This document shows, in pieces, positions 15,867 through 49,885 of a stretch of 64,000 bases of DNA. The stretch is from Thermodesulfobacteriota bacterium (GTDB taxonomy: Bacteria > Desulfobacterota > Syntrophorhabdia > Syntrophorhabdales > JANXAF01). The stretch lies in contig JANXAF010000003.1 in the NCBI GenBank assembly GCA_025062045.1, positions 41,444 to 105,443 of the forward strand, read 5' to 3'. Numbering within the stretch: position 1 is the stretch's first letter; every line of letters begins with the position of its first letter. The notes below the pieces were generated by a model. That model was given only the letters and a program-made list of their open reading frames with translations. It did not search any database and had not been told where the DNA came from. The position numbers and the translations under genes were made by a program.

Positions 15867-15888
15867 TCGTCGATTGGGGGGATCTATT

Positions 15889-16950: not shown

Positions 16951-17039
16951 CGAAGATAAGTCAAGACTTTAACCTAGAATTTTCTTGACATTCGCGATCT
17001 TTTTCGGTCTAGTTCAATAACGAATGTAAAACGGAGGGT

Positions 17040-18374: not shown

Positions 18375-18386
18375 GGGAGGACTGTT

Positions 18387-18569
18387 ATGGAGCATTACGA
18401 CATTTTCGCAATGGATAAAAAGATACAGGAGATAAAGGAAGCGGTCAAAGAACTCGAGAGGCTTGGGGAAGGAATAGAGGCTGTAAAAAGGAACTTAGTG
18501 CGACTTAAAGCGACTCTAAAGATGCTTGAACTAAATATCTCTGATGTAAAGCTTGTCTATCCTTCTTGA
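18387..18569 (+). CDS. 60-aa predicted helical/coiled-coil protein, unknown function
   Basis: Strong GGGAGG SD 7 nt upstream. Heptad-like K/E/L composition. 12 nt downstream of the ligase. Its 3' end overlaps the convergent Mo-enzyme gene by 13 nt. Confidence 0.5.
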   Translation: MEHYDIFAMDKKIQEIKEAVKELERLGEGIEAVKRNLVRLKATLKMLELNISDVKLVYPS

Positions 18570-20647
18570 GGATCAAGCCGTACTATCCTACAAGGTATCG
18601 CCCTAAGGTTGGGTGTCCCGAACTCCCTTCCAAACGGGGGGCTATCGTCTGTTAGGATATTTATATTGGACCTATCCCATCCGAATAAAGTCTCTTCCTT
18701 TTCCTCAGGAAAGTACCATCCGTAATCGCATAAAACTGTATTTTCGTGAATGTCCGGATTTATCTTTACCTTTTGGAGTATCCTTCCTTGCCGGGTTTCG
18801 ATGTATACGTAAGAACCCTCTTTTAAACCGAAAGATTCTGCAACGTCTGGATGGATCTCCACGCAGGGCTCAGGATACTTTTTTCTCAAAGCTTCTATAT
18901 TTTTTCCTCCAGAGTGTCTAAAATATGTGCGCTTAAGACTCGTAAGGATTAGAGGATATTGAGGATCTTTATCTTCACAAAGAACCTTTTCCAAATCGAC
19001 GGAAGGTAAAGGGGGAAAACCCCATTCTTCCAATCTTTTTGAATATATCTCCACCTTGCCAGAAGGCGTTGGGAAACCGTTTTGTATGTGATGGTTAGGT
19101 TTTGGCTCACCCTTTACGTATCCGATCTCGCATAAATCGTCAAACCTTATCCCTAAAGGAGAAAGGATGTAGTCGAGACACTCTTTTTCGGTTTTCCAGA
19201 AAAGATCTCCGAATCCGCAGGGAATGGAGAGTGCTCTTAAAATCTCATAATCCGATTTTGCTAGACCCACGTTTACCACTTTTTTCTGAGCCGAAAGGAC
19301 AGGGAGCGAATACGGTGGAAGGGAGAGGCTATCGAATTCAAAGAAAGTGGCCGAGGGAAGGAAATAGTGCGCTAAAGAGGCAGTTGGGGTCATAAAATGA
19401 TCAGAAACGACAAGAAGTTCAACCTTTCTTAGAGCTTCGTACACTTTTTTGGCATTCGGATAAGTAAGGAGAAAGTTTCCACCTTGAATGAATAAACCCT
19501 TTATTGGATAGGGGTCCTCTTTAAGGATGGCTTCAATTACAAGCTGAGGCAGCGCATAATAAAGATTGGGTAGCATGTAGCCTTTTCCACCGATCCTCCT
19601 TTTCCTCTCCTCCAAAGAGAGAAGGTTATGTAAGGTTAGTTCGGAAGAACCCCTTTCGATTATCGATGGAGCCTTGTAGTATATGTCCCCACCTGGAATA
19701 TTGAGATTTCCGGAAATAGCCCTCAAGATACATATCGCTCTTGCCGTCTGGAAGTTCTGAGTTGTGTGATCTATTCCGTTTCCCCATTGAATAACTGAAG
19801 GTTTAAGTCCTGCGTAGGCTTTTGCGATCTTTAAGATGAGATCCTTCGGTACGTCAGTTAATTTCTCCACCACTTCGGGTTTGAATGGATCCAACGTGTT
19901 TTTCAATTCTCCGAAGCCTATAGTATACTTCTCAACGAAATCTCTATCGTAAATTTCCTCTTTGACAATGACATAGATGAGGCCTAAGGCCAAAAGAAGA
20001 TCACTCCCAGGCCTTATCTTCACCCATAGATCCGCAATTTTTGCAATCTCAGTCTTTATGGGATCGATAACTATGAGAAAGGCTCCGCTTTTTTTTGCAT
20101 CTTTTATTCTCTCGTAAACATGATGAAGCGTCTCAGAGACGTTATTGGCCCATACTACAATGCACTTGGGTGGGTACTCGAGATCACATATCGCGTAAAA
20201 ACCGTAAGTCAATGTGGATGCCATCCTGCGCGGAATAAAGCAAACGTGTGCCATCGATGTGATATTTGGGCTTCCGAAAGCGTTGGCAAAACGGGAAAGG
20301 TAATCGTCGTGGAGACCCTTTGCAGACCCTCTCATGAAAACTATAGATTCCGGCCCGTATTGAGCCTTTATCTCCAATAACTTTTCAGCAATTTCTCCTA
20401 TTGCCTCATCCCAGGATATTTTTTTCCAAAGCTTCCCTTCTTTACGTAAGGGTATAGTGATCCTTTCTGGATGGTAAAGATAATCTATGGAGGTTAGCCC
20501 CTTTATGCAGAGCTTTCCTCGATTAAGAGGGTGATCAGGATCCCCCCTTACTTCGACGACCTTTGAATCCGAAACTTTAACGATGATTCCGCACCCTATC
20601 TGGCAAAGACCACAGGTGCTTTTAATCTCTCTTTGAGCGTATCTCAT
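18557..20647 (-). CDS. cytoplasmic molybdopterin (Mo/W-bisPGD, DMSO-reductase superfamily) enzyme with an N-terminal [4Fe-4S] site
   Basis: 696 aa. Has the N-terminal C-x2-C-x3-C...C motif (CGLCQIGCG...KLCIKG). No twin-arginine signal. A candidate metal-ligand Cys lies in SMAHVCFIP. FMTPTASLAHYFLP, TPSGKVEIYS and PNLRA are collinear with acetylene-hydratase-type members as I recall them. Confidence 0.8.
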   Translation of the reverse strand: MRYAQREIKSTCGLCQIGCGIIVKVSDSKVVEVRGDPDHPLNRGKLCIKGLTSIDYLYHPERITIPLRKEGKLWKKISWDEAIGEIAEKLLEIKAQYGPESIVFMRGSAKGLHDDYLSRFANAFGSPNITSMAHVCFIPRRMASTLTYGFYAICDLEYPPKCIVVWANNVSETLHHVYERIKDAKKSGAFLIVIDPIKTEIAKIADLWVKIRPGSDLLLALGLIYVIVKEEIYDRDFVEKYTIGFGELKNTLDPFKPEVVEKLTDVPKDLILKIAKAYAGLKPSVIQWGNGIDHTTQNFQTARAICILRAISGNLNIPGGDIYYKAPSIIERGSSELTLHNLLSLEERKRRIGGKGYMLPNLYYALPQLVIEAILKEDPYPIKGLFIQGGNFLLTYPNAKKVYEALRKVELLVVSDHFMTPTASLAHYFLPSATFFEFDSLSLPPYSLPVLSAQKKVVNVGLAKSDYEILRALSIPCGFGDLFWKTEKECLDYILSPLGIRFDDLCEIGYVKGEPKPNHHIQNGFPTPSGKVEIYSKRLEEWGFPPLPSVDLEKVLCEDKDPQYPLILTSLKRTYFRHSGGKNIEALRKKYPEPCVEIHPDVAESFGLKEGSYVYIETRQGRILQKVKINPDIHENTVLCDYGWYFPEEKEETLFGWDRSNINILTDDSPPFGREFGTPNLRAIPCRIVRLDPQEG

Positions 20648-21633
20648 AGTTTAAAAAGAGTTTTTGCATTTTCGGAGAAGATCTTTTGGCCTTCCTCAGT
20701 AGAGAGATTTAGAGATTTGAGACTCTCTATTGCCCTTTCCACACCTCCTATTGGATGAGGATAATCGGTCCCAAAGAGCACATGGTCGATCCCCATGTAT
20801 TCTATCGCACACCTCATCGCGGGCAAGTGGAAGGAGACGGTGTCGATGTAAACGTTCGTTTTGTAATATATAGAAGGTTTTTTCATTGCTGAAAATTTAA
20901 AATCCTTTCCGTAGGTTTCATATGCGTCATCCACTCTTCTCACCAGATAAGGAAATACCCCTCCAAGGTGAGGATGGATGACCTTTAGGTTTTGAAACCT
21001 GTCGAAAACACCGAATAGTATGAGTCCTGCAACTGCAATAGTCGTATCCATGATGAATCCAAAAAGGGGGATTGGCATCATGACCTTTTTTAGAACTGTT
21101 GTAGTAATAGGAGGTCCTGGATGAACAAGGATTGGAAGATCAAAATTCGATGCGGCCTCGTATATCGGATAAAATTCCTGGAAGTATATCGGTTTACCAG
21201 CGACATTTGAGAACATAATAACTCCTTTTGCGTCAAGATCCCTCTTTGCCCGTTCTAGTTCCTTTACTGATGCTAAAACGTCTTGAATGGGAAGAGTCGC
21301 CAAAAAATGAAGTCTCCCTTTGCTCTTTTGACATATGGAAGCAAAATAGTCATTGAGCTTTTTTGCCCAAAAAACACCATCCCTTTTAGGCAGTAACTCT
21401 ACACTCGGTGTCGTAAGACTCATCAGATTGACATCTATTCCTTTTTCATCCATATCCTTGATCCTTTCTTCCACATCCAAATGTCCCTTTTTTTCGATTG
21501 TTGCAAGCCTCGTTCCCTTAAAGTAGATGAGAATCTTCTCTTCCTTTTTTCTGATCGTTATCGTTTTAGAGTGGCTTTCCAGATAGTCAAGCCATTCTTT
21601 CGGGTATAAATGGTTATGGACATCTATTAACAA
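20644..21633 (-). CDS. amidohydrolase_2 (ACMSD/gamma-resorcylate-decarboxylase family) protein with the canonical HxH motif
   Basis: 329 aa. Has IDVHNHLYP, ILVHPG, IHPHLGG and LFGTDYPH. There is a 4-nt ATGA overlap with the Mo-enzyme gene. Confidence 0.8.
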   Translation of the reverse strand: MLIDVHNHLYPKEWLDYLESHSKTITIRKKEEKILIYFKGTRLATIEKKGHLDVEERIKDMDEKGIDVNLMSLTTPSVELLPKRDGVFWAKKLNDYFASICQKSKGRLHFLATLPIQDVLASVKELERAKRDLDAKGVIMFSNVAGKPIYFQEFYPIYEAASNFDLPILVHPGPPITTTVLKKVMMPIPLFGFIMDTTIAVAGLILFGVFDRFQNLKVIHPHLGGVFPYLVRRVDDAYETYGKDFKFSAMKKPSIYYKTNVYIDTVSFHLPAMRCAIEYMGIDHVLFGTDYPHPIGGVERAIESLKSLNLSTEEGQKIFSENAKTLFKL

Positions 21634-21642
21634 ATCACCCTC

Positions 21643-21846
21643 CTAGTAAAGCATCTCCACAGGGAAGAAAATCTTTATGGCACCCATCGGACACTCAAGT
21701 CTACAGGACCCACAGTGCCAGCATTCATCGGCATACTTGACAATTGGCATATTTTTTTCGGAATCGAAATGTATAACATCCAAAGGACATATCTTATCGC
21801 ACATCCCACATCCAGAACATCTATCCATATCTATATTCGGGGGCAT
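21643..21846 (-). CDS. 2x[4Fe-4S] mini-ferredoxin, AprB-N-terminal-domain-like (copy A)
   Basis: 67 aa. Has CSGCGMCDKICP and CWHCGSCRLECP. Overall pattern is MPP.I....C.GC...C....K......CW.C..C...CP.GAI. Confidence 0.85.
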   Translation of the reverse strand: MPPNIDMDRCSGCGMCDKICPLDVIHFDSEKNMPIVKYADECWHCGSCRLECPMGAIKIFFPVEMLY

Positions 21847-21861
21847 GTTGTCACCTAATCC

Positions 21862-23547
21862 TTAAGGAATTTTGTCATAGCTTAACTTTTTAAACTCTTT
21901 TACAACTTTCCCATCTTTCTGAAAGATCACTATTTCCCCCTCAAACTCTTCCTTTGTCTCCGGATAGTCAGAACGGAAATGGAAGATTCCGAACCTAGTT
22001 TCTTTCCTTTCCAACGAAGCATGGCACATGATCGTACCGATATCTATCAGTTGGTTTGTTTCATGAACTCTCATAAGCTCGTGAAAATCTTTTGCCTTGA
22101 GAGCTTGCGCCTCCTCTTTTAAGCTTTGAAGCTTATCTATTGCCAGATTTAAACTTTTTTCATTTCTTACGGGTCCTGCGTATTCCCACATCACTCTCCT
22201 TATTACATTTTCCACTGTTTTATGATCTAGATTTCCAGTGACCCATAGCGGTCTATAGATTGCTTCTTTTAGTCTCTGAATCTCTTTTTTATCGACTCTT
22301 ATTGGGTGAGAGTAGTTTTTGGCATATTCAGCCGCCACTTTGCCGGAAAGATATCCTCCGGTTGTGCACAAATGCACGCATCGCATCTGGTCAGTACAGT
22401 CACCACAGGCAAAGAGGCCTTCTATCGAACTTGATGTCCTCTCGTCTATCATTATTCCGCTTCCACAAACTTCAGAAGGACCTGCCTGCATACCTTCCGA
22501 ATACATAACCTCCAAAGGTTCTTTAGAGAGATCCACCCCCTTTTGTTCCAAAAAATCAGGAAGGGTATCTTTGTCGTAACCGAGTGTCCGTTTTAGATGG
22601 TTTAGATCAGCTTCCGAGAGGTGGGTACAGTCGATGTAAATCGGTCCGTTTCCCATTTGGATCTCTTTCATGACCGCATAAACAAGCATACTTCTTGGAG
22701 CTTTGTTCCCCATAGGATGGTATTTTGCCATAAATTCCTCGCCGTAAGCGTTGATCAACCTTCCACCCATTCCCATAAGAGCGTTCAATCCGGCCGCACT
22801 GAACCCTTTCGGCACGACCGTAATCCTCATGTACTCCATGTTTGCGAGCTTGGCACCGACTTTATAAGCCATAACTTGTGCTGCTCCAGTATTTTGTGGA
22901 CACTGCCAAGTATTAAAAGGGAGCCCTGTTGGGTTATGGAAGAGCCTTGTTGTGCATCCTGTGGCTAAAATAGTCGCCTTCGCTTTAACTATATAAAAAT
23001 CCCCCGTTCTTATATTAAAGCCAACTGCGCCTATAACTCGTTCCCCATCATAGAGGAGATCGGTCATCATACATCTCTCTAAGGCAAAGACCCCAAGTCT
23101 TCTTGCTTCTTTTGCTAAAGCCGGTTTGAGATTCTTACCGTTAAAGTTTATGAAATAGGGTCCTGGCTGTCCTAAGGACTGGGTCCTAAGATACTTACCG
23201 TCACTCTGTTTAAGGGTGCATCCTATCTTTTCCATCCTTTCTAGTGCCGCCTCAAGTTCCTTGCAGAAGACTGCATCCTGTACCTTCAAATCTACTGCTC
23301 CTCGGGCGATCTTCGCCACATAACTTAGGTACGCTTCTCTCGTATCCCACGGTCCTGTATTGAGATAGGCCATGAAATGGTCAACCCCTCCGGCGGTTGC
23401 CCCGCATCTTTCGAGTGTCCCTTTATCTGCCACTATAACTTTTACGTTTTTCTCTAGTGCGCCAAGCGCCGCATTATTACCGGCAAGCCCACCGCCTACT
23501 ATGAGAACGTCCGTTTCGAATTCGTATTCTCTTATGTTTCCGATCAT
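21862..23547 (-). CDS. AprA-like FAD flavoprotein of the succinate dehydrogenase/fumarate reductase/APS reductase superfamily (copy A)
   Basis: 561 aa. Has an N-terminal DVLIVGGGLAGNNAA dinucleotide fold. FYIVKAKATILATG, NAYGEEF, GPIYID and DFHELMRVHE...RKETRFGIFHFRSDYPE are collinear with A. fulgidus AprA as I recall it. Confidence 0.75.
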   Translation of the reverse strand: MIGNIREYEFETDVLIVGGGLAGNNAALGALEKNVKVIVADKGTLERCGATAGGVDHFMAYLNTGPWDTREAYLSYVAKIARGAVDLKVQDAVFCKELEAALERMEKIGCTLKQSDGKYLRTQSLGQPGPYFINFNGKNLKPALAKEARRLGVFALERCMMTDLLYDGERVIGAVGFNIRTGDFYIVKAKATILATGCTTRLFHNPTGLPFNTWQCPQNTGAAQVMAYKVGAKLANMEYMRITVVPKGFSAAGLNALMGMGGRLINAYGEEFMAKYHPMGNKAPRSMLVYAVMKEIQMGNGPIYIDCTHLSEADLNHLKRTLGYDKDTLPDFLEQKGVDLSKEPLEVMYSEGMQAGPSEVCGSGIMIDERTSSSIEGLFACGDCTDQMRCVHLCTTGGYLSGKVAAEYAKNYSHPIRVDKKEIQRLKEAIYRPLWVTGNLDHKTVENVIRRVMWEYAGPVRNEKSLNLAIDKLQSLKEEAQALKAKDFHELMRVHETNQLIDIGTIMCHASLERKETRFGIFHFRSDYPETKEEFEGEIVIFQKDGKVVKEFKKLSYDKIP

Positions 23548-23549
23548 GG

Positions 23550-24575
23550 CTAATTTAGTCTCAGTAATCTTTTTGCATTTCCCTCAAATATAGCAGTCTT
23601 GTCTTCCTCCGTAAGAATGTCGAGAGTCTCGATTATATGGATAGTTTCTCTTATGTAAGGAGAGTCCTCCTCGTGTATGTTTGGACGTGAGTCGAAGGGC
23701 ATGTCGGTTCCAAATAGTACATGATCGACCCCAAAAAAGAGGATTCCACACCTTGTGGATTCTTTTGCGCCGAAAAGAGCTGTGTCCGCATAGAACATTT
23801 TAAAGTAATCGATCGGTCTTTTCTTCATAGATTTTATGAGGGATTCGTAGTCTTCACCGGAAGTCCTAGAACCGAGCATGTCCCATGCTGGTCCAACCCT
23901 TCCAGCCTGGTAAGGTGCTATCCCGCCCAGGTGATGGGTTATTATCTTTATGGAGGGGTACTTCTCGAAGATTCTGGAGAAGACTAAGTGTGCCATGCAC
24001 ACACTCGTCTCATACGGCCATCCGAATATGAACCATATCTCGTAATGGCTTTTCGTTTCCGCCTTATAATCGGGAAAGTCAGAACCCCTCGTGGGGTGTA
24101 TCCATATGGGTCTTTCGATTTCTGCCATGTATTTGAATAGGGGTTCAAATTCTGGCCTATCCAATGGTTTCCCAAGGACATTGGTAAAGAGCTGAATCCC
24201 GAAAGCTCCAAGCTCATCTATTGCACGTTGAGCCTCTTTTAGTGAAGCGTCTATGTCATTCAATGGAAGGGAGGCGACAAACCCCAAAAACCTATCGGGG
24301 TATCTATCTACGATCTCTTTCATTGAGTCATTTGCGATCCTTGCAAGCTCGTATGTGACATTCGGTGGGCCGAATGTTTCGATTGGTGGAGCCGCAAGGG
24401 TCAAAACCTGAACGTAATTTTCAAACTTATCCATGATTCTAAATCTGTCTTCGAGCTCGTAGAGGGCATAAATATTTCGCACCCTTTTGTTCATATCTTT
24501 CGCATGGGGCGCGAGCTTTTGGACCTTATCCAGGTATTTTTTTGGCAAGATGTGGCAGAACATATCGATCTTCAT
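23550..24575 (-). CDS. amidohydrolase_2 (ACMSD-family) protein, atypical F-x-H N-terminal motif (copy A)
   Basis: 341 aa. Has KIDMFCHILP (ACMSD has KIDIHSHILP), PIWIHP, ITHHLGG and LFGTDMPFD. Confidence 0.8.
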   Translation of the reverse strand: MKIDMFCHILPKKYLDKVQKLAPHAKDMNKRVRNIYALYELEDRFRIMDKFENYVQVLTLAAPPIETFGPPNVTYELARIANDSMKEIVDRYPDRFLGFVASLPLNDIDASLKEAQRAIDELGAFGIQLFTNVLGKPLDRPEFEPLFKYMAEIERPIWIHPTRGSDFPDYKAETKSHYEIWFIFGWPYETSVCMAHLVFSRIFEKYPSIKIITHHLGGIAPYQAGRVGPAWDMLGSRTSGEDYESLIKSMKKRPIDYFKMFYADTALFGAKESTRCGILFFGVDHVLFGTDMPFDSRPNIHEEDSPYIRETIHIIETLDILTEEDKTAIFEGNAKRLLRLN

Positions 24576-26452
24576 CTCTTACTCCTCTTTATCCATTCGT
24601 AGATTATAAAGGGGGCCGATATTGAAAGGCCTACTATATCGTAAATTACTCCCGGCACCATAACTGTGAGACCACTTAGGAATAGAATCGCCCTGACCCA
24701 TAATTTTAGTTCGCTAAAAAGATAGCCCTCAACTCCGATAGCGAGAAGTACCACACCTATGACTCCAAAAATTATGGACTCGACTATTTCGATAGGTGAC
24801 CCGATGAGGATTAGACTCGGTTTAAATATGAATATGAAGGGCACAATGTAAGCAACGATACCTAGCTTCATCGCCTGGTATGCGGTTTTGAGCATATCAT
24901 CCTCTGCTATAGCCGCTGCCGCGTACGCTGCAAGGCAAACAGGTGGGGTGAGAAAAGAAAGAACTGCGAAATAAAAGACGAAAAAATGGGCAAGAATCGG
25001 TTGTATTCCAAGCTCAATAAGGGCGGGGGCAGCAAGCGTTACCATAAGGAGATAAGAACCGGTTGCGGGCATTCCCATACCGAGAATCACTGCTCCAAAT
25101 GCCGTAAGGAGAAGTAGAGGTACGATCTTCTTCCCGGCAAGTTCAACTAGAAGAGCTGAGAACGAAAATGCAAGTCCCGTAATGGAAAGAATCCCTATAA
25201 GAATTCCAGCTCCTGCACATGTTATACAGATCTCCAGGAAAAATCTTCCACATTCCGAGAATATGGGGAAGATACTTTTTGCTCTCACTCTTTTTAGCAC
25301 GAGCCACCCTAGAAGAAATGCGAATGCTGTAGTATAGATACCCGCGTATTCAGCCTCCATCTGCTTAAAAAAGAGAAGATATATGAGAAGTAGAAATGGG
25401 ATGGATATAAGCCAATTCTTTTTCAAAGTTTGGTATAGGGATGGGATTTTACTTTTCTCCATCCCTTTAAGTCCCAACTTTGCGGCCTCCAGATCTACTT
25501 GAACGAAAACGGCAAAATAGTAAAGTAAAGCGGGTATTATGGCGGCGATAGCGACCTTTGCGTATGGAATTCCTAGAAAGGTGGCCATGATAAATGCCGA
25601 CGCTCCCATAATGGGAGGCATAATCTGGCCGCCTGTTGAAGAGACGGCCTCTACAGCCCCTGCGTAGTAAGGCTTGTAGCCGGCTTTCTTCATAAGAGGT
25701 ATGGTGAATGTGCCTGTTGTTACAACGTTGGCAACCGCGCTTCCAGAAATCATGCCGAAAAGGGAAGATGCGAAAACAGCTACCTTCGCCTGACCTCCTC
25801 TAAATCTTCCTAAAATCGATGTTGCCACATCGTTAAAAAACTCACCCAAGCCGACCTTTGATATGGTCTGTCCGAATAGAATGAATACGAGAACGACTGT
25901 GGATGATACGATAACAGGAACCCCAATTATCCCTTGAGGATCAACGTAGAGGTAGTTGGCCAAATTCTTCCAAGAGACACTCTTTAGGCCTAGTGGAAGG
26001 TGGGAAAGAAAAAGGGCGACCAGTATGAAAAAGACGATAATTACTAAAAAAGGGTATCCCGTAACCCTTCTTATTGCCTCAAGGGTAAGTAGGATGGCAA
26101 GTATGCCTAAAAAGATCCTGTGGGGTTTTAAGAGCCCGACTTCTATCATTATTTCGTCGTAGAAGATGCCCAGATAAAAGAAGCAGAAAAGAGAAACAGA
26201 TGCAAAGACGAAATCGTAAAAAGGGACTTTATCTGAGGTTATCCTTCTTGAGGGACGGATGAATATAAAAGTTGAAAAGAGTGTAAGTCCGTAGATCAAA
26301 GCTACCCATTGGTGGATGTGGAATGACTTAGAGAAGTATGCAGGGAGGTTTAGAATAGCTGTTATCGCAAGGAGGGGGATAAGGAATAGGCCTAAGTTTC
26401 CGACTATCTTCGCTATCCCCCCCGGATCCCTAAAACGGGATACCCTTTCCAT
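24572..26452 (-). CDS. TRAP transporter fused permease (TAXI-associated DctQM-type)
   Basis: 626 aa and polytopic. Has GGQAKVAVFASSLFGMISGSAVANVVTTGTFTIPLMKKAGY. It is a clear paralog of 42451..44301. Confidence 0.85.
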   Translation of the reverse strand: MERVSRFRDPGGIAKIVGNLGLFLIPLLAITAILNLPAYFSKSFHIHQWVALIYGLTLFSTFIFIRPSRRITSDKVPFYDFVFASVSLFCFFYLGIFYDEIMIEVGLLKPHRIFLGILAILLTLEAIRRVTGYPFLVIIVFFILVALFLSHLPLGLKSVSWKNLANYLYVDPQGIIGVPVIVSSTVVLVFILFGQTISKVGLGEFFNDVATSILGRFRGGQAKVAVFASSLFGMISGSAVANVVTTGTFTIPLMKKAGYKPYYAGAVEAVSSTGGQIMPPIMGASAFIMATFLGIPYAKVAIAAIIPALLYYFAVFVQVDLEAAKLGLKGMEKSKIPSLYQTLKKNWLISIPFLLLIYLLFFKQMEAEYAGIYTTAFAFLLGWLVLKRVRAKSIFPIFSECGRFFLEICITCAGAGILIGILSITGLAFSFSALLVELAGKKIVPLLLLTAFGAVILGMGMPATGSYLLMVTLAAPALIELGIQPILAHFFVFYFAVLSFLTPPVCLAAYAAAAIAEDDMLKTAYQAMKLGIVAYIVPFIFIFKPSLILIGSPIEIVESIIFGVIGVVLLAIGVEGYLFSELKLWVRAILFLSGLTVMVPGVIYDIVGLSISAPFIIYEWIKRSKR

Positions 26453-26455
26453 CCT

Positions 26456-27469
26456 TTACCTTTTTAGCTGAGCGATAAGCCTGGACTGGATCTCTTCCAT
26501 CTCTTTTGTCCAGAGTCCTTTTTCTTTGAAGTATTTGACTACGCCAGGATGGTAAGGGATTACTATATCCTTAGAGACGAAAACGTCTTGATCCCAATCT
26601 TTTAAGAGTTTATGGACAAGCTCAAACTCTTTATAGTTCTCATAAAGAGCCTTGACTATTGTATAAGCGACACTGTCAGGGAGCTCAGCCGTTGTTGCGA
26701 GATAGATGTCATAGACCCATAGGTACTGTTCCCCGCTTATGCCGACCGTACCAGGTCCTTCCTTAACCTTTGCCATGTAACCTGGAAAATACTTTTTCAT
26801 CCTCTCAACGAGATGGGGTGAGGGATCGAGTGGCAAGTATCTGGCACCCTTTTTAGCGTTGAGTTCCTCGATCACGGGAGAACCGAGCGTTATTGTGCCT
26901 GAAGCATCGGCCCTACCCTCGATTACCGCTTTTACCCCATCGGGTGGGGAATGGACAGGGACCATTATCACGTCTTTTTCCTCGAGCCCTCCGTTGGCTA
27001 AAAGGGCTAGGGTCTGGAGTGTTATGGAAGTCCTAGGGTATTTCCCTGCCACCTTCTTCCCTTTAAGATCGGCTATCTTTCTTACAGGAGAGTCCTTAGG
27101 CACAACGATTCCGATCTTATTCGGGACAGTGGGCGTGAGGATTCTCAAATTCGGAAAGCCCTTTCCCTGAGAAAGTTTCTCCCATTCGTACTTGCCTAAA
27201 ACTGCCATCTCCGCGTCCCACATGTTCATGACTCCTAGTTGTATCTCACCCCTTGCCATATAAGGCATCCACGCCTCCGGCCCCGACATCGGTTTAACTA
27301 TCGCCTTAAGGTTAGTCTTTTCATTTATGACTTTTGCTGCGGCAACACCGATTGTGTGGAAGAACGCACCTATTGGATTCGTTCCAATGTTTATCTGATC
27401 GGTCGAAAAGGAAAGATTGGCGAAAAATAGTATGAAAGAGGCTAAAAAAAGAAGAGTTGTCACTTTCAT
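26456..27469 (-). CDS. TAXI-family TRAP solute-binding protein with signal peptide
   Basis: Has the N-terminal signal MKVTTLLFLASFILFFANLSFS and a periplasmic-binding fold. I prefer the ATG at 27469 (GGGGG SD) over the track's GTG at 27484. Confidence 0.75.
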   Translation of the reverse strand: MKVTTLLFLASFILFFANLSFSTDQINIGTNPIGAFFHTIGVAAAKVINEKTNLKAIVKPMSGPEAWMPYMARGEIQLGVMNMWDAEMAVLGKYEWEKLSQGKGFPNLRILTPTVPNKIGIVVPKDSPVRKIADLKGKKVAGKYPRTSITLQTLALLANGGLEEKDVIMVPVHSPPDGVKAVIEGRADASGTITLGSPVIEELNAKKGARYLPLDPSPHLVERMKKYFPGYMAKVKEGPGTVGISGEQYLWVYDIYLATTAELPDSVAYTIVKALYENYKEFELVHKLLKDWDQDVFVSKDIVIPYHPGVVKYFKEKGLWTKEMEEIQSRLIAQLKR

Positions 27470-27480
27470 GTTTACCCCCT

Positions 27481-28230
27481 TCACGTTCTTTTTTGTGAAA
27501 AATAGTCGCTTTTTGCAAGCGCTTTCTCCATAACATCACCCACGTATCTTAGGTGATCTTCCAGTAACCTTTTCACCTCCTCTTTTTTTCCGTTTTTTAA
27601 GGCAAGAACTATCTTTTCGTGATCTGCAACGTTCTTTTTAGGAAAAGAAAAGGGAAGTTTCACCTGACTTCTAAAATCCGAAACGACCGTCATTATGAGT
27701 TCTATTACTAGGATGAAGACCGAATTCTTGGAGATCCTTGCCAGGTGTCTGTGAAACTCGATATTTTCGTGGAAAGGCTGAATTTTGTTCTTTATCTTTT
27801 CCTTCGACACTCGAACGTTCTCTTCAAGCGTTCGAATGTCTTCGGCGGTAACATTTTCTAAAACATGCTTTATCATAATCTTTTCGATCTCAATCCGTGC
27901 AACCGTGAGATCGTGGATATCTATCTTTCTCATAAGAAATGCTTCAAGAAAGAGGTTAGAAAATGTGTTCATTATTGTGTCGGCAACAAATGCTCCCTTA
28001 CCTAAACCTTTCTCAACTTTTATATAGCCTGAAAGCTCAAGTAGTCTCATGGCCTCTCTTATCGTCTGTCTTCCAACGTTAAATTTCCTTGCAAGCTCAG
28101 ATTCTGACGGAAGCCTATCGCCAGGTTTAAGCTCACCGGCTAAAATGAGCCTCTTAATCTCGTCTGAGACGACTTCAAACGTTCTCTTTCTAATGATGGG
28201 GGTAACGTTGAGAAGATGTGATACAGTCAT
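27481..28230 (-). CDS. GntR-family (FadR/FCD-type) transcriptional regulator
   Basis: 249 aa. Has the wHTH LPSESELARKFNVGRQTIREAMRLLELSGYI and an all-helical C-terminal domain. It is the first gene of the operon. Confidence 0.85.
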   Translation of the reverse strand: MTVSHLLNVTPIIRKRTFEVVSDEIKRLILAGELKPGDRLPSESELARKFNVGRQTIREAMRLLELSGYIKVEKGLGKGAFVADTIMNTFSNLFLEAFLMRKIDIHDLTVARIEIEKIMIKHVLENVTAEDIRTLEENVRVSKEKIKNKIQPFHENIEFHRHLARISKNSVFILVIELIMTVVSDFRSQVKLPFSFPKKNVADHEKIVLALKNGKKEEVKRLLEDHLRYVGDVMEKALAKSDYFSQKRT

Positions 28231-28240
28231 AATGTCATAC

Positions 28241-28269
28241 TTTTTACACCTTTATTTGGGGGATGTCAA
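28241..28269 (-). promoter_or_regulatory. putative sigma70-type promoter of the GntR-led operon, possibly giving a near-leaderless mRNA
   Basis: On the minus strand: TTGACA (28269-28264), a 17-nt spacer, TAAAAA (28246-28241), then 10 nt with no SD before the ATG at 28230. Confidence 0.35.
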
Positions 28270-28377
28270 GAAAAGCGGATAACAAGTAAAAAATCCTTAG
28301 GATTGCGTATAGAACAAATTTTGTTAGACCAATAGGTGTGGACAAGGAAAAAAAAATCGATTAAACTTATACCAAAT

Positions 28378-28453
28378 CGGGGCGTGGCGCAGCCTGGTCT
28401 AGCGCACTTGCTTGGGGTGCAAGAGGTCGCAGGTTCAAATCCCGTCGCCCCGA
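28378..28453 (+). tRNA. tRNA-Pro (anticodon GGG)
   Basis: Hand-folded cloverleaf. Acceptor CGGGGCG/CGCCCCG plus discriminator A. D-arm GCGC-AGCCTGGTCTA-GCGC. Anticodon arm CTTGC-TTGGGGT-GCAAG. T-loop TTCAAAT, with the T-stem carrying one G-U and one A-C mismatch. No encoded CCA. Confidence 0.85.
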
Positions 28454-28483
28454 TTGTTCATTTTACGGGCTTGAGGGGAAATC

Positions 28484-45767: not shown

Positions 45768-46766
45768 TTAGTTTAACTTAAGGATCCTTTGGGCGTTTTT
45801 GTAAAAGACCTTTTCCTTTACAGAGTGTGAGTCTATCATACTCTCCAAAGCCTCAATGGTGGAACGGATTGATATATCGCCATTTTCCACATCGTACGGC
45901 ATGTCAGTTCCAAAAAGGAGATGATCTTCGCCAAAGAACTCAAGGGCGCATCTTAAAGCCAGAGGATTTCCATTCAGTGCAGTATCCGCATAGAACATCC
46001 TATAGTATTCGATCGGATGTTTTTTTAAACCAGGAAAAAACTTGAGTCCGAGCCGTTCCAGTCCATTGTCGTAATGGACAACTATGCGATTCGAAAGATA
46101 AGGTATCATACCACCGGCATGATGAGTTATAAATTTGATGTTTGGTAGACGCTCAAATATGCCAGAAAATACAAGCCTCGTCATGGCTTTTGCAGTTTCA
46201 AAAGGCCATCCAAATATCGAAAATATCTGGTGGTAAGAGAATTGCTCTACGGCGTAATCGGGCTCACTAGAGCTTCTCATGGGATGTATCCAGATGGGAA
46301 GATCATAATCTGCCATAAGTTTGTAAAGCGGAAAGAGCTCTTCAGAACTTAGTGGTTTTCCAAGAACCCTAGTGTAGATCTGAATACCTTTAAATTTAAG
46401 CTTTTCTATAGCCCTCTTTGTCTCCTCAATAGCGATACTTATGTTGTTAAGTGGGATATTTGCGATGGCTCCCACAAATCTGTCAGGATAATTCTCTACT
46501 AGTTCTGCCATTTCATCGTTACATATACGTGCGAGACGCAAAGCCTCATCGGGGTCGCTAACTACCTCTTCGATGGGAGGCATCGTCGTCGAGATAACCT
46601 GTTTGTATCCTTCGTACTTTTCCATTTTTTTTATCCTTCCATAAAAGTCGGTAAGGATAGGACGTTTATCTTGCACCGCCTTTTCGGTAGGAAACCTATC
46701 GGCGTATTTGTAAAGAGCTTCCTTGTACTTAGGAAGCATGACGTGATTAAAGATATCTATCTTCAT
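45768..46766 (-). CDS. amidohydrolase_2 (ACMSD-family) protein, atypical F-x-H motif (copy B)
   Basis: 332 aa. Has KIDIFNHVMLP, PIWIHP, ITHHAGG and LFGTDMPYD. Roughly half the residues are identical to 23550..24575 over a hand-aligned core of about 130 aa. Confidence 0.8.
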   Translation of the reverse strand: MKIDIFNHVMLPKYKEALYKYADRFPTEKAVQDKRPILTDFYGRIKKMEKYEGYKQVISTTMPPIEEVVSDPDEALRLARICNDEMAELVENYPDRFVGAIANIPLNNISIAIEETKRAIEKLKFKGIQIYTRVLGKPLSSEELFPLYKLMADYDLPIWIHPMRSSSEPDYAVEQFSYHQIFSIFGWPFETAKAMTRLVFSGIFERLPNIKFITHHAGGMIPYLSNRIVVHYDNGLERLGLKFFPGLKKHPIEYYRMFYADTALNGNPLALRCALEFFGEDHLLFGTDMPYDVENGDISIRSTIEALESMIDSHSVKEKVFYKNAQRILKLN

Positions 46767-46783: not shown

Positions 46784-48274
46784 TTATTTTCGCTTCTTCT
46801 TGAAAGCGGAGATCACAAGGATCAAAACGACAAGAATTATGGTGAGAGAAATTGGTCGCCTAAAAAGGGTCAGGTAATCGCCCTGAAACGCAATCAGCAT
46901 CTGGCGCATGTTGAGGTCCAATAATTTCGAGAGAACCATCGACAAGACCAATGGAGCAGGTTCAAACTCAAGCTTCCTCAAAAAATAGCCGATGAGCCCA
47001 AAGACGCAAACGACGTAAACGTCGAACACACTGTTATTTATACTATACGCCCCTATAACACACAAAAGAAGAATGAGCGGGTAAAGAATCCTGGGTGATA
47101 TCTTAAGTATTTGAACCCAAAGCGGGATAAGGGGAAGGTTGAGTATGAGTAACATCACATTTCCGATGTACATGCTACTTATTACTCCCCAGAAGATGTC
47201 CGGTTTCTCTTTAAGTAAAAGCGGACCGGGAACTATTCCGTGTACGAGGAAAGCTCCAAAAAGGACCGCAAGCATAACGTTGGGAGGAATACCTAGCACT
47301 AGAAGAGGGACAAAAGAAGTTGAAGCAGCTGCGTTGTTTGCAGATTCAGGCGCAGCAACCCCTTCTACTGCTCCAGACCCAAACTTCTCAGGACTTTTTG
47401 AGAACCTCTTCTCGACGCCATATGCCAGAAATGAAGCCACAACTGGTCCGCCACCAGGTAGTAAACCGAGCATAAAACCGACCAATGAGCCCCTAAGAAT
47501 AGCCCATTTGGCCTCCAACCAGTCCCGGTAAGTGAGGAAGAGGTTTCTGATCTTTGTTCTTACGAGCTCGGGTTCTACAATTCTTTCCATGTTTACGAGA
47601 ACTTCTCCTATTCCGAAAAGACCCATTGCCACCTGTGCTATGCCTAAGCCCTCGAAAAGATAAGGAATGCCAAAGGTGAAACGCTGTGCGGATGTGATAG
47701 GATCGAGTCCCACACACCCAAGAATGAGTCCAAAAACACACATTATGAAAGCTTTTATCCTAGAGCCGTGGGAGACGTAAACGACGAAAGTGAGTCCAAG
47801 CAAAACCAAAGCAAAATACTCACAAGGACCGAATCTTAAGGCTAAACCCACAAGGGGTTTTGCGATAAGCGTAAGCCCTATTATTCCAAAAGTTCCGGCT
47901 ATGAATGAACCGATTGCGGCTATGGCTAAAGCAGATGCAGCGCGGCCAGCCCTTGCCATTTGGTAGCCATCGAGACAGGTGATTACACTTGCCGCCTCGC
48001 CAGGGACGTTAAGAAGAATTGATGTTGTGGATCCGCCGTACATGGCCCCGTAGTATATCCCGGCAAGCATAATTATCGATCCGGCAGGCGGTAACTTGAA
48101 TGTCAAAGGAAGGAGTATGGAAATGGCTGCAACAGGCCCAAGACCAGGCAAAACCCCAATTAGGGTTCCTAGTGTAGCTCCCGCCAAACACAAAATCAGA
48201 TTTTCGGGGGTCAGTGCGATTGAAAAACCATAAATCAAACTAGAAAGTGTATCGCTTACCACTTCAACCCCCAA
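46784..48274 (-). CDS. tctA: tripartite tricarboxylate transporter large permease TctA
   Basis: Polytopic. Has GTLIGVLPGLGP and GLLPGGGP, which are TctA signatures. The track ORF extends to 48391 but that part overlaps tctB. A TTG at 48274 or a GTG at 48262 is a more plausible start. Confidence 0.8.
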   Translation of the reverse strand: MGVEVVSDTLSSLIYGFSIALTPENLILCLAGATLGTLIGVLPGLGPVAAISILLPLTFKLPPAGSIIMLAGIYYGAMYGGSTTSILLNVPGEAASVITCLDGYQMARAGRAASALAIAAIGSFIAGTFGIIGLTLIAKPLVGLALRFGPCEYFALVLLGLTFVVYVSHGSRIKAFIMCVFGLILGCVGLDPITSAQRFTFGIPYLFEGLGIAQVAMGLFGIGEVLVNMERIVEPELVRTKIRNLFLTYRDWLEAKWAILRGSLVGFMLGLLPGGGPVVASFLAYGVEKRFSKSPEKFGSGAVEGVAAPESANNAAASTSFVPLLVLGIPPNVMLAVLFGAFLVHGIVPGPLLLKEKPDIFWGVISSMYIGNVMLLILNLPLIPLWVQILKISPRILYPLILLLCVIGAYSINNSVFDVYVVCVFGLIGYFLRKLEFEPAPLVLSMVLSKLLDLNMRQMLIAFQGDYLTLFRRPISLTIILVVLILVISAFKKKRK

Positions 48275-48686
48275 AAAGGCTTCCTCGGGGTAGTGGCACC
48301 TGAAGAAGGATCTTAAAAACGATATATGATAGAAATGATGCCGAAAGAGAATAGATGACCGATCTTGGTAATTTAAAACCGCAGAGTGCAAAGATAAAGA
48401 TCATAAAAAGTATAGTCGCTACGAGAAACCCTAAAAGTTCAAGGACCAAGGCATACGTAAAGAGGAGAGTGAAGACTAATACAGGCCTTTTCCAGTAAAT
48501 TGGGACCTCATCCGCTTTACTCTTCATGTACAAGACTACCGAAAGAATAATGAGTATCGACGATGAAAAAAAGGGCAGAAAGCCAGGTCCGGGCGAAGAA
48601 AAACCGATCTTCAGCTTGAACGAAACATAAAGCACGTAGATACCGACCAGTAGGAAAAGAAGCGAAGCTATCTGCCCTTTCTTCAT
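48264..48686 (-). CDS. tctB: tripartite tricarboxylate transporter small permease TctB
   Basis: 140 aa with four hydrophobic helices. Lies between tctC and tctA. Confidence 0.7.
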   Translation of the reverse strand: MKKGQIASLLFLLVGIYVLYVSFKLKIGFSSPGPGFLPFFSSSILIILSVVLYMKSKADEVPIYWKRPVLVFTLLFTYALVLELLGFLVATILFMIFIFALCGFKLPRSVIYSLSASFLSYIVFKILLQVPLPRGSLFGG

Positions 48687-48690
48687 CCCC

Positions 48691-49662
48691 TTAGTACGGT
48701 CTGGTTGCCGATTCCTTAATAAGCCCGGTTTCTTTCAGAGTCTTTTCCAGTTTGAACCACATGGTCCTTAAATATTCCGTGTACTCCTTCGATCCCATAA
48801 ATATCGGTATCATGTCCAAACTATCGAGAACGCGCTTGAACTCAGGTGAATCTTTTGCCTTGCTAAAGGCATCCTCCAATTTTCTGACCACCTCATCAGG
48901 CATCTTTGCAGGGCCCAGAATAGAAAATACCGTTTCGTTAACAAAGTCGTATCCCAGTTCCTTTAAAGTAGGGACTTCAGGATGCTTAGGATTTCTTGTT
49001 GCCTGATGGTAAGCAAGTACTCTGATCTCACCCGATCTCACATATGGAGCATGCTCCGGTCCGGAAGAGCAGATATCCACGTGACCTCCAAGGAGAGCAA
49101 CAAGAGCATCTTTTGACCCGGGATAGGGGACATGGATTATGTCGAGTTTATCTTTGAATTTCACGTATTCCATCGCATGGTGCATGGCAGTGCCAACTCC
49201 GGCTGAGCTGTACTTTAGCTTGCCCGGATTCTTTTTTGCGTACTCCACGAGCTCTGCATGAGTCTTCCAGGGAGCGTCTTTTCTCACACATGTTGCATTC
49301 TGTGGAGACGCAAACGCAACAATTGGAGTAAAGCTCGCTAAAGGTTTGAAACTCACTTGCTGAAAGTGTGGTGCCCTTATTATGCCTGTACTAGTTGCAG
49401 CACAAAGGAGGTATCCGTCAGGTTTTGCGGTCGAAATCAGGGTAGGTGCTACTGTTCCGCCACCTCCAGGCTTATACTCGATAATGAAACTGGTCCCCAA
49501 AAATTTTTCAGCAGCCGAGCACAGGGCCCTCGTTGTAAGATCCATCGATCCACCAGCTGTGAATGCCACATATACAGTTATAGGTCTTTCCGGATATCCG
49601 GCGGCAAAAACCTTTCCACAAATAAAGGCTAAGAGCAAAATAAAGAGAATTTTTTTAAACAT
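48691..49662 (-). CDS. tctC: tripartite tricarboxylate transporter substrate-binding protein TctC (Bug family)
   Basis: 323 aa with a signal peptide. Has YPERPITVYVAFTAGGSMDLTTR and KPGGGGTV. Confidence 0.85.
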   Translation of the reverse strand: MFKKILFILLLAFICGKVFAAGYPERPITVYVAFTAGGSMDLTTRALCSAAEKFLGTSFIIEYKPGGGGTVAPTLISTAKPDGYLLCAATSTGIIRAPHFQQVSFKPLASFTPIVAFASPQNATCVRKDAPWKTHAELVEYAKKNPGKLKYSSAGVGTAMHHAMEYVKFKDKLDIIHVPYPGSKDALVALLGGHVDICSSGPEHAPYVRSGEIRVLAYHQATRNPKHPEVPTLKELGYDFVNETVFSILGPAKMPDEVVRKLEDAFSKAKDSPEFKRVLDSLDMIPIFMGSKEYTEYLRTMWFKLEKTLKETGLIKESATRPY

Positions 49663-49885
49663 GGTTCCCTCCCCTTTTATAGGATAACATCAAAGGCAGT
49701 GGTATCCTAAGCTTTATAGCCCCGTTCGGACATTCCTCTACACACAATCGACAGTGAAAGCAGAATTCCGGGTAGGCAACATGAGGGACACTGTCTTTTT
49801 CGCTGCCAAAATACACATCTTCCGAGCACACATCAACACATTTTCCGCAGGCCGAACAGAGCTCAGGTTCTATCACTGGAGGCAT
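49655..49885 (-). CDS. 2x[4Fe-4S] mini-ferredoxin, AprB-N-terminal-domain-like (copy B)
   Basis: 76 aa. Has CSACGKCVDVCS and CFHCRLCVEECP. It is a clear homolog of 21643..21846 (MPP.I....CS.CG.C...C...V....SEK......Y.E.C.HC..C..ECP.GAIK). Confidence 0.85.
   Translation of the reverse strand: MPPVIEPELCSACGKCVDVCSEDVYFGSEKDSVPHVAYPEFCFHCRLCVEECPNGAIKLRIPLPLMLSYKRGGNHV

Follow-up and report, generated by a model that had tools for sequence, protein, structure and literature searches.

The 64-kb window analysed here (64,000 nucleotides of contig JANXAF010000003.1, Thermodesulfobacteriota bacterium assembly GCA_025062045.1; all coordinates are those of the window) carries on its minus strand a gene pair related to adenosine 5'-phosphosulfate (APS) reductase. 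The pair encodes a 561-aa AprA-like flavoprotein, FP1 (21862..23547), predicted to bind flavin adenine dinucleotide (FAD) non-covalently, and a 67-aa ferredoxin with two [4Fe-4S] cluster motifs, FD1 (21643..21846). Judged from its residues, the pair is not an APS reductase or a reductase of 3'-phosphoadenosine 5'-phosphosulfate (PAPS). With a probability of about 0.5, it was read as a ferredoxin-coupled C=C reductase of the fumarate reductase (FRD) type, which would act in the catabolism of carboxylates or aromatic acids. The chances are about even that the two proteins are the core alpha and beta subunits in a widespread, uncharacterised branch that was re-tooled from sulfur chemistry to organic-acid catabolism. 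What is new is probably the exchanged active site and the carboxylate-catabolic role in an enzyme of the AprAB/PAPS reductase kind, within a large, mis-annotated and uncharacterised family.

Both genes are open reading frames (ORFs) beginning with ATG and 15 nt apart. They lie at the coordinates, and in the order A then B, given in an earlier reading of the letters (the sequence-only reading). FP1 has the three-domain fold and both Pfam domains of the superfamily of FRD, succinate dehydrogenase (SDH) and NadB, namely FAD_binding_2 (5.6e-36, 125 bits) and Succ_DH_flav_C (1.9e-15, 57 bits), each above its cut-off. When FP1 was compared with the PDB using phmmer, the best match was the alpha subunit of the PAPS reductase MtPAPSR (8a8o_A, E = 2.7e-66, 228 bits, about 32% identity). 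Archaeoglobus fulgidus AprA followed (1jnr_A, E = 1.2e-47, over residues 10-536, nearly the full length), and SdhA, FrdA and NadB ranked below both (E = 1e-24 or weaker; 23-26% identity to FP1). The collinearity with AprA claimed in the sequence-only reading was recovered in the PDB alignment, where its motifs KAKAtILATG, NAYGEE, PIY, HELMR and RKETR...DYPE are all visible. An AlphaFold2 model of FP1 was built from 19 family sequences and judged by its scores and its Foldseek matches (mean predicted local distance difference test score 81.6, predicted template modelling (TM) score 0.86). Its best Foldseek matches were 8a8o_A (TM 0.84) and 1jnr_A (TM 0.80); SdhA and FrdA were matched with a probability of 1.00 and TM 0.73-0.79. 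FP1 is a member of the APS-reductase-like branch of the fumarate reductase flavoprotein superfamily.

FD1 contains two CxxCxxCxxxCP motifs and only 14 residues after the second. It aligned with residues 1-64 only of the 150-aa AprB (1jnr_B, E = 4.6e-8), with residues 7-63 of the 104-aa MtPAPSR beta subunit (8a8o_C, E = 1.2e-9) and with positions 1-64 of 132 in the aprB model TIGR02060 (44.4 bits, cut-off 135.65). FD1 corresponds to the N-terminal ferredoxin domain of AprB, as the sequence-only reading proposed, and to that of the PAPS reductase beta subunit, with the tail missing. Because generic polyferredoxins outscored AprB among the matches of FD1, the AprB-like label rests on synteny, on the MPP N-terminus and on the Trp of the CWxC motif. 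Ferredoxin ORFs adjoin family flavoproteins in 83 cases, and 66 of these have two canonical CxxCxxCxxxC(P) motifs. Of the canonical ones, all but one (65/66) have Trp after the opening Cys of the second motif, and most family ferredoxins stop about 15 residues past the second cluster motif. Trp43 of FD1 corresponds to Trp-B48 of AprB and to Trp42 of PAPS reductase, which have been proposed as the electron relay to FAD (PMC2211403, PMC10322725). A tail-less partner of this kind was known before, from the 'AprAB-like' complex found in Clostridia and others in sulfur-assimilation neighbourhoods (PMC8477390). This sulfur-assimilation group (DiSCo; PMC8477390) was later shown to be PAPS reductase (PMC10322725). 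The tail-less partner is not unique to the FP1 family, and the combination of an AprA-like alpha subunit with a tail-less beta subunit is already known from the PAPS reductase group.

The active-site residues of AprA have been defined as Asn-A74, Arg-A265 and His-A398, with Arg-A317 and Leu-A278 as adenine clamp (PMC2211403). PAPS reductase retains the catalytic residues of AprA, and its loop 104-123 is adapted to the 3'-phosphate, including Lys120, Arg121 and Ser122 (PMC10322725). These positions were compared in a MAFFT alignment of 199 distinct family sequences with 1jnr and 8a8o; an L-INS-i alignment agreed on the catalytic columns. The 1jnr and 8a8o sequences were rebuilt from printed alignments, and 17 of 18 literature positions were confirmed in their numbering. 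None of the 199 family members kept Asn74 (Met, Leu, Ala or Phe instead; M59 in FP1), Arg265 (Val, Leu, Gly, Ile or Met; V245), His398 (Ser, Thr, Ala or Asn; S358) or the clamp residue Arg317 (Leu, Val, Met or Ile). In MtPAPSR numbering, N57, R237 and H346 are M59, V245 and S358 of FP1. The column of AprA Gln145, which is Ser122 in MtPAPSR, holds Phe, Trp or Met (F132 in FP1), and that of His446 holds Met, Asn or Thr. The Leu278 column is uncertain, with Leu/Phe in the first alignment and Thr/Val/Met in the second. Only two of the compared residues persist in the first alignment: the flavin-stacking re-face Trp234 of AprA, retained in 192/199 sequences (W214 in FP1), and Gly274.

Profile models gave the same picture of distance. 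FP1 scored 180 bits against aprA (TIGR02061, cut-off 641.75), 285 bits against PRK06854 (NF005331, cut-off 557) and 314 bits against PRK08275 (cut-off 587), its top NCBIfam model. No NCBIfam cut-off was reached, including those of aprA, SdhA/FrdA, NadB and TfrA, and all scores were far below; TcuA (NF006130, cut-off 369 bits) was not among the 25 best NCBIfam matches. A neighbour-joining tree (546 columns, 200 bootstraps) was made with one bona fide AprA, one PAPS reductase and the FrdA, SdhA and NadB proteins of Escherichia coli. The FP1-type clade, the clade of FP2-type sequences (named after a second flavoprotein of the window, see below) and the pair of A. fulgidus AprA and MtPAPSR each received 100% bootstrap support. 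The three grouped against the E. coli FrdA, SdhA and NadB proteins at 84%, with the order among them unresolved; FP1 and the Apr clade appeared as exclusive sisters in only 25% of the replicates. Since the AprA residues are lost, the cut-offs are missed and FP1 stands in its own clade outside AprA and PAPS reductase, the pair would not be an APS or PAPS reductase. The sequence-only reading had named two outcomes that would speak against it, namely conserved APS/AMP-binding residues in a protein branching inside true AprA, and a clean fall into a characterised non-Apr family such as TcuA or NadB; neither was observed. Its proposal of a repurposed AprAB-like enzyme acting on something other than APS is supported by the residue loss, the separate clade and the operon context described below.

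A divergent sulfur enzyme was weighed at this point, one that would reduce APS or PAPS, handle sulfite or reductively desulfonate organosulfonates. Such an enzyme would agree with the PAPS and APS reductases being the closest solved relatives, with the JGI annotation as adenylylsulfate reductase subunit A and with a TauE/SafE-family gene directly upstream of the flavoprotein gene in one related locus. It is highly improbable: the four sulfate/sulfite/adenine residues are lost in every member, the Ser122 position is Phe, Trp or Met, and TauE occurs in 1/83 loci. Genes for sat, cysC, sulfite reductase, qmo and dsr were absent from the window and from the 25 commonest neighbour Pfam families. A scan of 48 ORFs of the window turned up no domain of the sat, apr, qmo, dsr or sulfite-reductase kind, which extends the first impression that sat, qmo and dsr are missing nearby. 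The JGI/IMG name 'adenylylsulfate reductase subunit A' (the NCBI name is 'FAD-binding protein') conflicts with the alignments, in which every APS-binding residue is lost.

The comparison with the two solved systems is closest for MtPAPSR (8A8O, PMC10322725), which shares the compact alpha subunit of about 560-570 aa without the AprA insertions and the short, tail-less beta subunit with its Trp. MtPAPSR differs in keeping its catalytic Asn, Arg and His and in being surrounded by sulfate-assimilation genes (sat, cysC, asr, TusA; PMC8477390). The FP1 family has Met, Val and Ser/Thr at those residues, Phe or Trp at Ser122, an FRD-type Arg that is absent from PAPS reductase, and a carboxylate-catabolic context; FD1 has 67 aa against 104 aa for the PAPS reductase beta subunit. 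With AprBA of A. fulgidus (1JNR/2FJA), FP1 and FD1 have in common the fold, the non-covalent FAD, Trp234 and electron entry through two [4Fe-4S] clusters with Trp-B48. Unlike AprBA, FP1 lacks Asn74, Arg265, His398 and Arg317 and about 80 residues of insertions in the capping and helical domains. The gene order is A then B, there is no AprB tail (about 80 aa, which wraps AprA), and no sat or qmo gene is nearby.

What the site has gained was examined by aligning the family with FrdA, SdhA and NadB of E. coli (NC_000913.3) and checking the catalytic residues by position. Arg285 of FP1, in an '(A/G)PR' motif, aligns gap-free with SdhA R286, FrdA R287 and NadB R290, and is invariant in 194/194 FP1-type sequences. 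AprA and MtPAPSR have Thr in this column, with their own Arg (AprA R317) three residues further on. The His that binds FAD covalently in SdhA and FrdA is Gly49 in FP1, and AprA likewise lacks it. SdhA Thr254/Glu255 correspond to a gap and N255. Some 27 family-invariant positions, clustered in substrate-site segments, hold residues that none of the five references has; they include Asp56-His57-Phe58 (directly before the Asn74 position, where it would lie beside the flavin; a DHF motif common to the FP2 clade), Arg241, Asn255, Gln354, Glu359 and Asp386. Judged from these columns, the FP1 site is an Apr-type scaffold and electron entry combined with an FRD-type acid/base residue and an otherwise new, more hydrophobic pocket. 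The conserved Arg285 suggests a reaction in which a hydride and a proton are transferred at a C=C/C-C (or C-N) bond. FP1 therefore resembles FrdA, SdhA and NadB in Pfam domains and catalytic Arg. It differs from FrdA/SdhA in lacking the covalent-FAD His, the His of the HPT motif, the His354 equivalent and probably Arg399, and from SDH/FRD in having a 67-aa ferredoxin as partner in place of the SdhB-type three-cluster subunit with its membrane anchor. The suggestion in the sequence-only reading of SDH/FRD-like chemistry beside a carboxylate gains support from the invariant Arg285 and from operons for carboxylate uptake and decarboxylation.

FP1 and FD1 lie inside a series of eight genes that share one direction, and neighbouring genes either overlap by 4 nt or are no more than 15 nt apart. 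No quinone-linked or membrane partner is among the eight products. From the gene spacing alone, the eight genes would form one operon. The order is GntR/FCD regulator, TAXI binding protein, permease of the tripartite ATP-independent periplasmic (TRAP) transporter type, Amidohydro_2 protein (AH_b), FP1, FD1, Amidohydro_2 protein (AH_a) and molybdenum/tungsten (Mo/W) enzyme, all on the minus strand. A scan of 18300-28600 for promoter and terminator consensus sequences gave counts equal to the shuffled expectation. The first gene encodes the GntR/FCD transcriptional regulator (27481..28230; Pfam GntR and FCD), with a 4-nt overlap with the gene for the TAXI-family TRAP solute-binding protein (26456..27484; TIGR02122 at 147 bits, cut-off 84; Pfam NMT1_3). 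The TRAP transporter fused permease follows (24572..26452; TIGR02123 at 618 bits, cut-off 320; Pfam DctM). Its gene overlaps by 4 nt that of AH_b (23550..24575; PF04909), a homologue of metal-dependent decarboxylases of the ACMSD/LigW type whose best PDB match was 3ij6, followed by LigW, ACMSD and gamma-resorcylate decarboxylase. AH_a (20644..21633; PF04909) is an ACMSD-type decarboxylase homologue with the ligand set HxH...H...H...D. Its best PDB match was human ACMSD (E = 3.5e-37). The alignment shows conservation of the catalytic His and of the metal ligands (HxH, His, His and Asp); Thr stands at ACMSD position 47 (Ala in the matched entry), and the substrate-binding Arg is not present. Together with a third such protein from the second module of the window (AH_c), AH_a and AH_b matched PF04909 at 115-135 bits, and the ligands were inspected residue by residue in AH_a. 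All three were nearest to ACMSD, LigW and the iso-orotate (IDCase), gamma-resorcylate, 2,3-dihydroxybenzoate and salicylate decarboxylases, and matched the LigY, LigJ and LigI types much more weakly. When the binding proteins of the window were compared with solved TAXI proteins and proteins of the tripartite tricarboxylate transporter (TTT) family, the matches to Bug, TphC, AdpC and glutamate-type TAXI proteins were all similarly weak and allowed no substrate call.

The last gene (18557..20647) encodes a cytoplasmic, single-subunit Mo/W enzyme of the bis-pyranopterin guanine dinucleotide type (Pfam Molybdopterin, Molybdop_Fe4S4 and Molydop_binding), whose N-terminus carries a [4Fe-4S] motif. 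Its best PDB match was acetylene hydratase (2e7z_A, 325 bits) and no NCBIfam cut-off was reached; it may be a hydratase, a hydroxylase or a dehydroxylase. As this acetylene-hydratase-like enzyme ends the operon and recurs in 15/81 related loci, FP1 and FD1 could be imagined as a pair without a substrate of its own, an electron-transfer or redox-activation module serving the Mo/W enzyme or the decarboxylases. Such a role is very unlikely. The Mo/W enzyme is missing from about 80% of the loci while the flavoprotein and ferredoxin are constant, FP1 retains a complete capping domain, the catalytic Arg and the family-specific invariants of the substrate-site segments, and ACMSD-type decarboxylases require no redox partner (general knowledge). 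A helper for the maturation of prenylated flavin mononucleotide in UbiD was set aside as well, the usual partner being the metal-dependent Amidohydro_2 protein and not UbiD.

In one search more than 1000 family proteins were found at E <= 1e-20, from Desulfobacterota, Syntrophorhabdia, Chloroflexota, Bacillota, Archaeoglobi, SAR324 and Alphaproteobacteria. For gene context, 83 loci were collected by scans of one genome per species and by single-protein look-ups, all from metagenome-assembled genomes (MAGs) or metagenomes. Their hosts are Desulfobacterota, Syntrophorhabdaceae, Desulfatiglandales, Desulfobacteraceae, Chloroflexota, Bacillota/Clostridia, a Geoglobus MAG, Azoarcus, SAR324, Rhodospirillaceae and other Proteobacteria. 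The Syntrophorhabdaceae, Desulfatiglandales, Desulfobacteraceae, Geoglobus and Azoarcus are lineages that include anaerobic degraders of aromatic compounds. Of the 83 loci, 81 were scored by tblastn with the window proteins, and 39 of these have at least 5 kb on both sides. A ferredoxin gene lies within 400 bp of the flavoprotein gene in 71/81 loci (88%) and in 37 of the 39 with long flanks. Within 8 kb of the flavoprotein gene were found an Amidohydro_2 gene in 40/81 loci, an Amidohydro_2 or UbiD gene in 42/81, a TAXI, TRAP or TTT transporter in 43/81 and a homologue of the Mo/W enzyme in 15/81. Because decarboxylase and transporter genes are near in only about half of the loci, the conserved core is the flavoprotein-ferredoxin pair alone and the substrates probably vary by clade. 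In the clade of at least 60% identity, transporter and decarboxylase genes are mostly kept, and the closest related locus, L003, repeats the whole gene order of the window. Two transporter-decarboxylase sets flank a single flavoprotein-ferredoxin pair in three loci (L004, L005 and L007), a layout consistent with two acids being funnelled into a single decarboxylated substrate, for example a phenolic one. In two others (L083 and L015) a UbiD decarboxylase takes the usual place of Amidohydro_2 beside the flavoprotein. Many genomes carry several paralogues, with three within 12 kb in L021 and two in this window.

Overall, the neighbours of the family are carboxylate transporters, decarboxylases, GntR/IclR regulators, aminotransferases and 2-hydroxyacid dehydrogenases. 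When Pfam families were counted over 143 otherwise unlabelled co-directional neighbours from 65 loci, aminotransferases, MFS transporters, 2-hydroxyacid dehydrogenases and IclR regulators led, and no sulfur-metabolism family was among the 25 most frequent. In a more distant subclade (47-51% identity) the genes run TctBAC-(LarA)-flavoprotein-ferredoxin-Amidohydro_2-aminotransferase-D-2-hydroxyacid dehydrogenase. Such loci bear on a different chemistry, that of a NadB-like C-N/C-O oxidase or dehydrogenase which would convert a 2-amino or 2-hydroxy (di)carboxylic acid into the imino or oxo acid and so feed the decarboxylase. NadB R290 does align with Arg285, and a class I/II aminotransferase and a D-2-hydroxyacid dehydrogenase, sometimes with a LarA-type racemase, occur in 9-10 loci. 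We consider this chemistry unlikely for FP1, as those genes are missing from both modules of the window and from the clade nearest FP1, the NadB substrate binders His244, His351 and Arg386 are not conserved, and the pocket substitutions are mostly hydrophobic. The literature on the LarA superfamily gave no link to this context.

For the reductase reading, the following sequence of events is proposed. The TAXI-TRAP transporter, or TctABC in the second module, would import an acid bearing one or more carboxyl groups, which is probably unsaturated or (hydroxy)aromatic. Decarboxylation would fall to the Amidohydro_2 enzymes of the ACMSD type, elsewhere occasionally to an enzyme of the UbiD type. 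The flavoenzyme would perform a two-electron step on an activated C=C, either of the imported acid or of what decarboxylation leaves of it, with the decarboxylases making or using up the adjoining intermediate. Electrons would enter through the two [4Fe-4S] clusters of FD1, docked like the ferredoxin domain of AprB, and pass by Trp43 to the non-covalent FAD. N5 of the reduced flavin would then pass a hydride to an enone or enoate at its beta-carbon, the candidates being the keto tautomer of a meta-dihydroxy-aromatic ring or an alpha,beta-unsaturated acid, and Arg285 would protonate the adjacent carbon as an FRD-type acid/base residue. The pocket, which is the sulfate/adenine site in AprA, would be lined by Met59, Val245, Phe132 and Leu288 and further by the family-specific Asp56-His57-Phe58, Arg241, Asn255, Gln354 and Glu359.

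The direction of the reaction was weighed against a desaturase of the SDH/TcuA/KstD kind. Such an enzyme would oxidise a saturated C-C bond beside a carboxylate or carbonyl and give the sp2 alpha-carbon for the decarboxylases, with electrons leaving via the ferredoxin. We regard this direction as doubtful, though the best of the other chemistries considered. It would suit the conserved catalytic Arg of FRD/SDH/NadB, the fact that both kinds of decarboxylase (Amidohydro_2 and UbiD) act on carboxyls at sp2 carbons (general knowledge), the presence of the family in presumably aerobic or facultative Alphaproteobacteria, and the oxidative operation of AprAB in sulfur oxidisers (PMC2211403). On the other side, no quinone-reducing, membrane-anchor, electron-transferring flavoprotein or cytochrome partner is conserved beside the pair in related loci, a free ferredoxin subunit with two [4Fe-4S] clusters would be a poor sink for electrons of about 0 mV (general redox knowledge), and most hosts are strict anaerobes. 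The reductive direction is favoured because such partners are lacking and the hosts are mainly strictly anaerobic, and because the layout of two transporters and two decarboxylases around one flavoprotein suggests convergence on a decarboxylated substrate.

A biochemical precedent for the reductive step is the resorcinol reductase of fermenting clostridia. According to PMC10470551, this enzyme is ferredoxin-dependent and reduces the enone tautomer of the phenol formed from decarboxylated resorcylic acids. The likeness to FP1/FD1 is a functional analogy only. The decarboxylases of the operon share their Amidohydro_2 group with gamma-resorcylate decarboxylase. Resorcinol reductase is presumably a flavin enzyme. 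The purified enzyme reportedly has subunits of about 50 kDa and no reported Fe-S partner, unlike the pair of 62 and 7.5 kDa described here. No gene was assigned to it in the literature found. That the flavoprotein-ferredoxin pair is the core of an unrecognised family of ferredoxin-driven, ATP-independent dearomatising or enone reductases, of which resorcinol reductase could be a member, is a speculation to which we give little credence.

Several points weigh against the reading of FP1/FD1 as an FRD-type reductase. The equivalence of Arg285 with the catalytic Arg of FRD is drawn from a sequence alignment. The SdhA substrate binders are not conserved in FP1 (His242 is T243, His354 is G352 and Arg399 is Q387); Arg389, present in 153/194 sequences, lies 1-2 positions from the Arg399 column and might substitute, its position being ambiguous. 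Loops of the active site have low confidence in the FP1 model (49-55, 208-218, 353-358, 384-388 and 519-529). The paralogue FP2 has Leu290 at the position of Arg285 and so misses the catalytic Arg. Even in the loci with long flanks, a decarboxylase was found in 20/39 and a transporter in 24/39, that is, in about half only. In one subclade the linked genes for aminotransferase, D-2-hydroxyacid dehydrogenase and LarA are a hint of chemistry on 2-oxo, 2-hydroxy or 2-amino acids. As members occur in Rhodospirillaceae and further Alphaproteobacteria, the family may extend beyond strict anaerobes. No isolate with the FP1 family was found, the homologue lists, including that of a search seeded with the Geoglobus MAG protein, containing MAG and metagenome proteins only. 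No characterised member was found in the literature on AprA-like proteins, resorcinol reductase, dearomatising flavoproteins or dihydroxybenzoate.

The family bears on the use of aprA as a marker, as metagenomic aprA counts made by annotation of the JGI kind may be inflated and over-call sulfate reduction or sulfur oxidation. It also suggests that the APS reductase scaffold, a flavoprotein with a small two-cluster ferredoxin, has been re-used outside sulfur metabolism with a wholesale exchange of the sulfur-binding residues, the FRD-type catalytic Arg being either kept or regained. With its repeated duplication inside genomes and its links to carboxylate uptake and to decarboxylases of the non-oxidative kind, the family is a concrete candidate for missing reductive or desaturating steps in the anoxic breakdown of phenolics and organic acids. 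Were the dearomatising reading true, imported hydroxy-aromatic acids would be decarboxylated by ACMSD-type enzymes and the phenolic ring reduced at the flavin of an enzyme descended from the APS reductase scaffold. In anoxic sediments, acids from polyphenols and lignin would then have a new way into catabolism that needs no O2. Flavoproteins named 'succinate dehydrogenase' stand with an Fe-S protein beside UbiD genes in the naphthalene-carboxylase clusters of N47, NaphS2 and Desulfatiglans TRIP_1 (PMC6849830). These genes (N47_K27400/K27410 and NPH_5880/5879) were expressed during growth on phenanthrene (PMC6849830) and might belong to the family.

The window carries two copies of the same kind of flavoprotein-ferredoxin module. 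The second module (45768-51550, minus strand) is 26 kb from the FP1 operon and has the order FP2, FD2, TctC, TctB, TctA, AH_c. FP2 (49889..51550) is a 553-aa paralogous flavoprotein with 28% identity to FP1 (E = 4e-51) and the DHF motif; it scored 63 bits against TcuA (NF006130, cut-off 369) over the N-terminal part only. The paralogous 76-aa ferredoxin noticed in the sequence-only reading does exist: FD2 (49655..49885), with two [4Fe-4S] cluster motifs, is 46% identical to FD1 and has Phe in place of the conserved Trp. The TTT solute-binding protein TctC (48691..49662; Pfam TctC, 5.4e-65) has Bug proteins and the terephthalate-binding TphC as PDB relatives. The small membrane subunit TctB (48264..48686; Pfam TctB, 3.9e-19) and the large membrane subunit TctA (46784..48391; Pfam TctA, 6.7e-163) follow, and then AH_c (45768..46766; PF04909, 6.8e-39), with PDB matches to 3ij6, LigW and ACMSD.

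The rest of the window is consistent with aromatic catabolism. An anaerobic phenol-type gene set (6075-18374), with genes resembling those for phenylphosphate synthase and carboxylase and for aryl-CoA ligases, lies beside the FP1 operon. It consists of a UbiX-like flavoprotein (6075-6653), three UbiD paralogues (6643-7995, 8250-9695 and 10856-12283), a HAD-like protein (9717-10271), a phenylphosphate synthase-like pair of a PEP-utiliser and a PPDK_N protein (13989-16950), a PaaK-like CoA ligase (17040-18374) and a LysR regulator. L003 has a PaaK-like ligase in the same position, together with ORFs of 377 and 617 aa whose sizes match. Upstream of the UbiD region, on the plus strand (708-4946), are genes for an alpha/beta hydrolase, a 501-aa carboxylesterase and a 653-aa acetyl-CoA-synthetase-like ligase; these enzymes may de-esterify aromatic esters. 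A third carboxylate-uptake set was found on the plus strand at 39853-44301, with an AMP-binding CoA ligase, a TAXI protein and a TRAP fused permease; no flavoprotein gene adjoins it.

Among the related loci, L021 (116-11650) contains two FP1-type flavoproteins and one of the FP2 type, two or three Amidohydro_2 genes and a TTT transporter, a local expansion of the module. The flavoprotein-ferredoxin pair of L082 (5439-9901, in a 0.93-Mb contig) follows a Mo hydroxylase of the xanthine dehydrogenase type (Fer2 and MoCoBD), a CitF-like CoA-transferase and a branched-chain-type ABC transporter, which stand in place of the Amidohydro_2 and TRAP genes. L045 (4201-9732), from an alphaproteobacterial MAG, is a single case in which a TauE/SafE exporter, a PP2C phosphatase and sulfhydrogenase-like genes (a NiFe hydrogenase large-subunit domain, and NAD_binding_1 with a DHODB Fe-S domain) precede the pair. 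TauE/SafE was considered as a recurrent neighbour of the flavoprotein and was rejected, as it occurs in this locus alone.

More distant relatives are found on rhizobial and Burkholderiales replicons, in clusters of the PRK08275/PRK13800 type. There another uncharacterised Apr-like alpha subunit is followed by a ferredoxin of 77-81 aa, in the same A-then-B order. These clusters differ from FP1 in their identity of about 28%, their HEAT-repeat partner and the lack of Amidohydro_2 and TRAP genes. A tblastn search of a plasmid collection returned only relatives of this kind, at about 28% identity, and no cultured carrier of the FP1 family. The set of flavoprotein, ferredoxin and HEAT-repeat protein was located on plasmids of Mesorhizobium and Cupriavidus (L087, 6974-9913, and L088, 7001-13212), and the Cupriavidus set adjoins an ABC transporter and an NtaA/DmoA monooxygenase.

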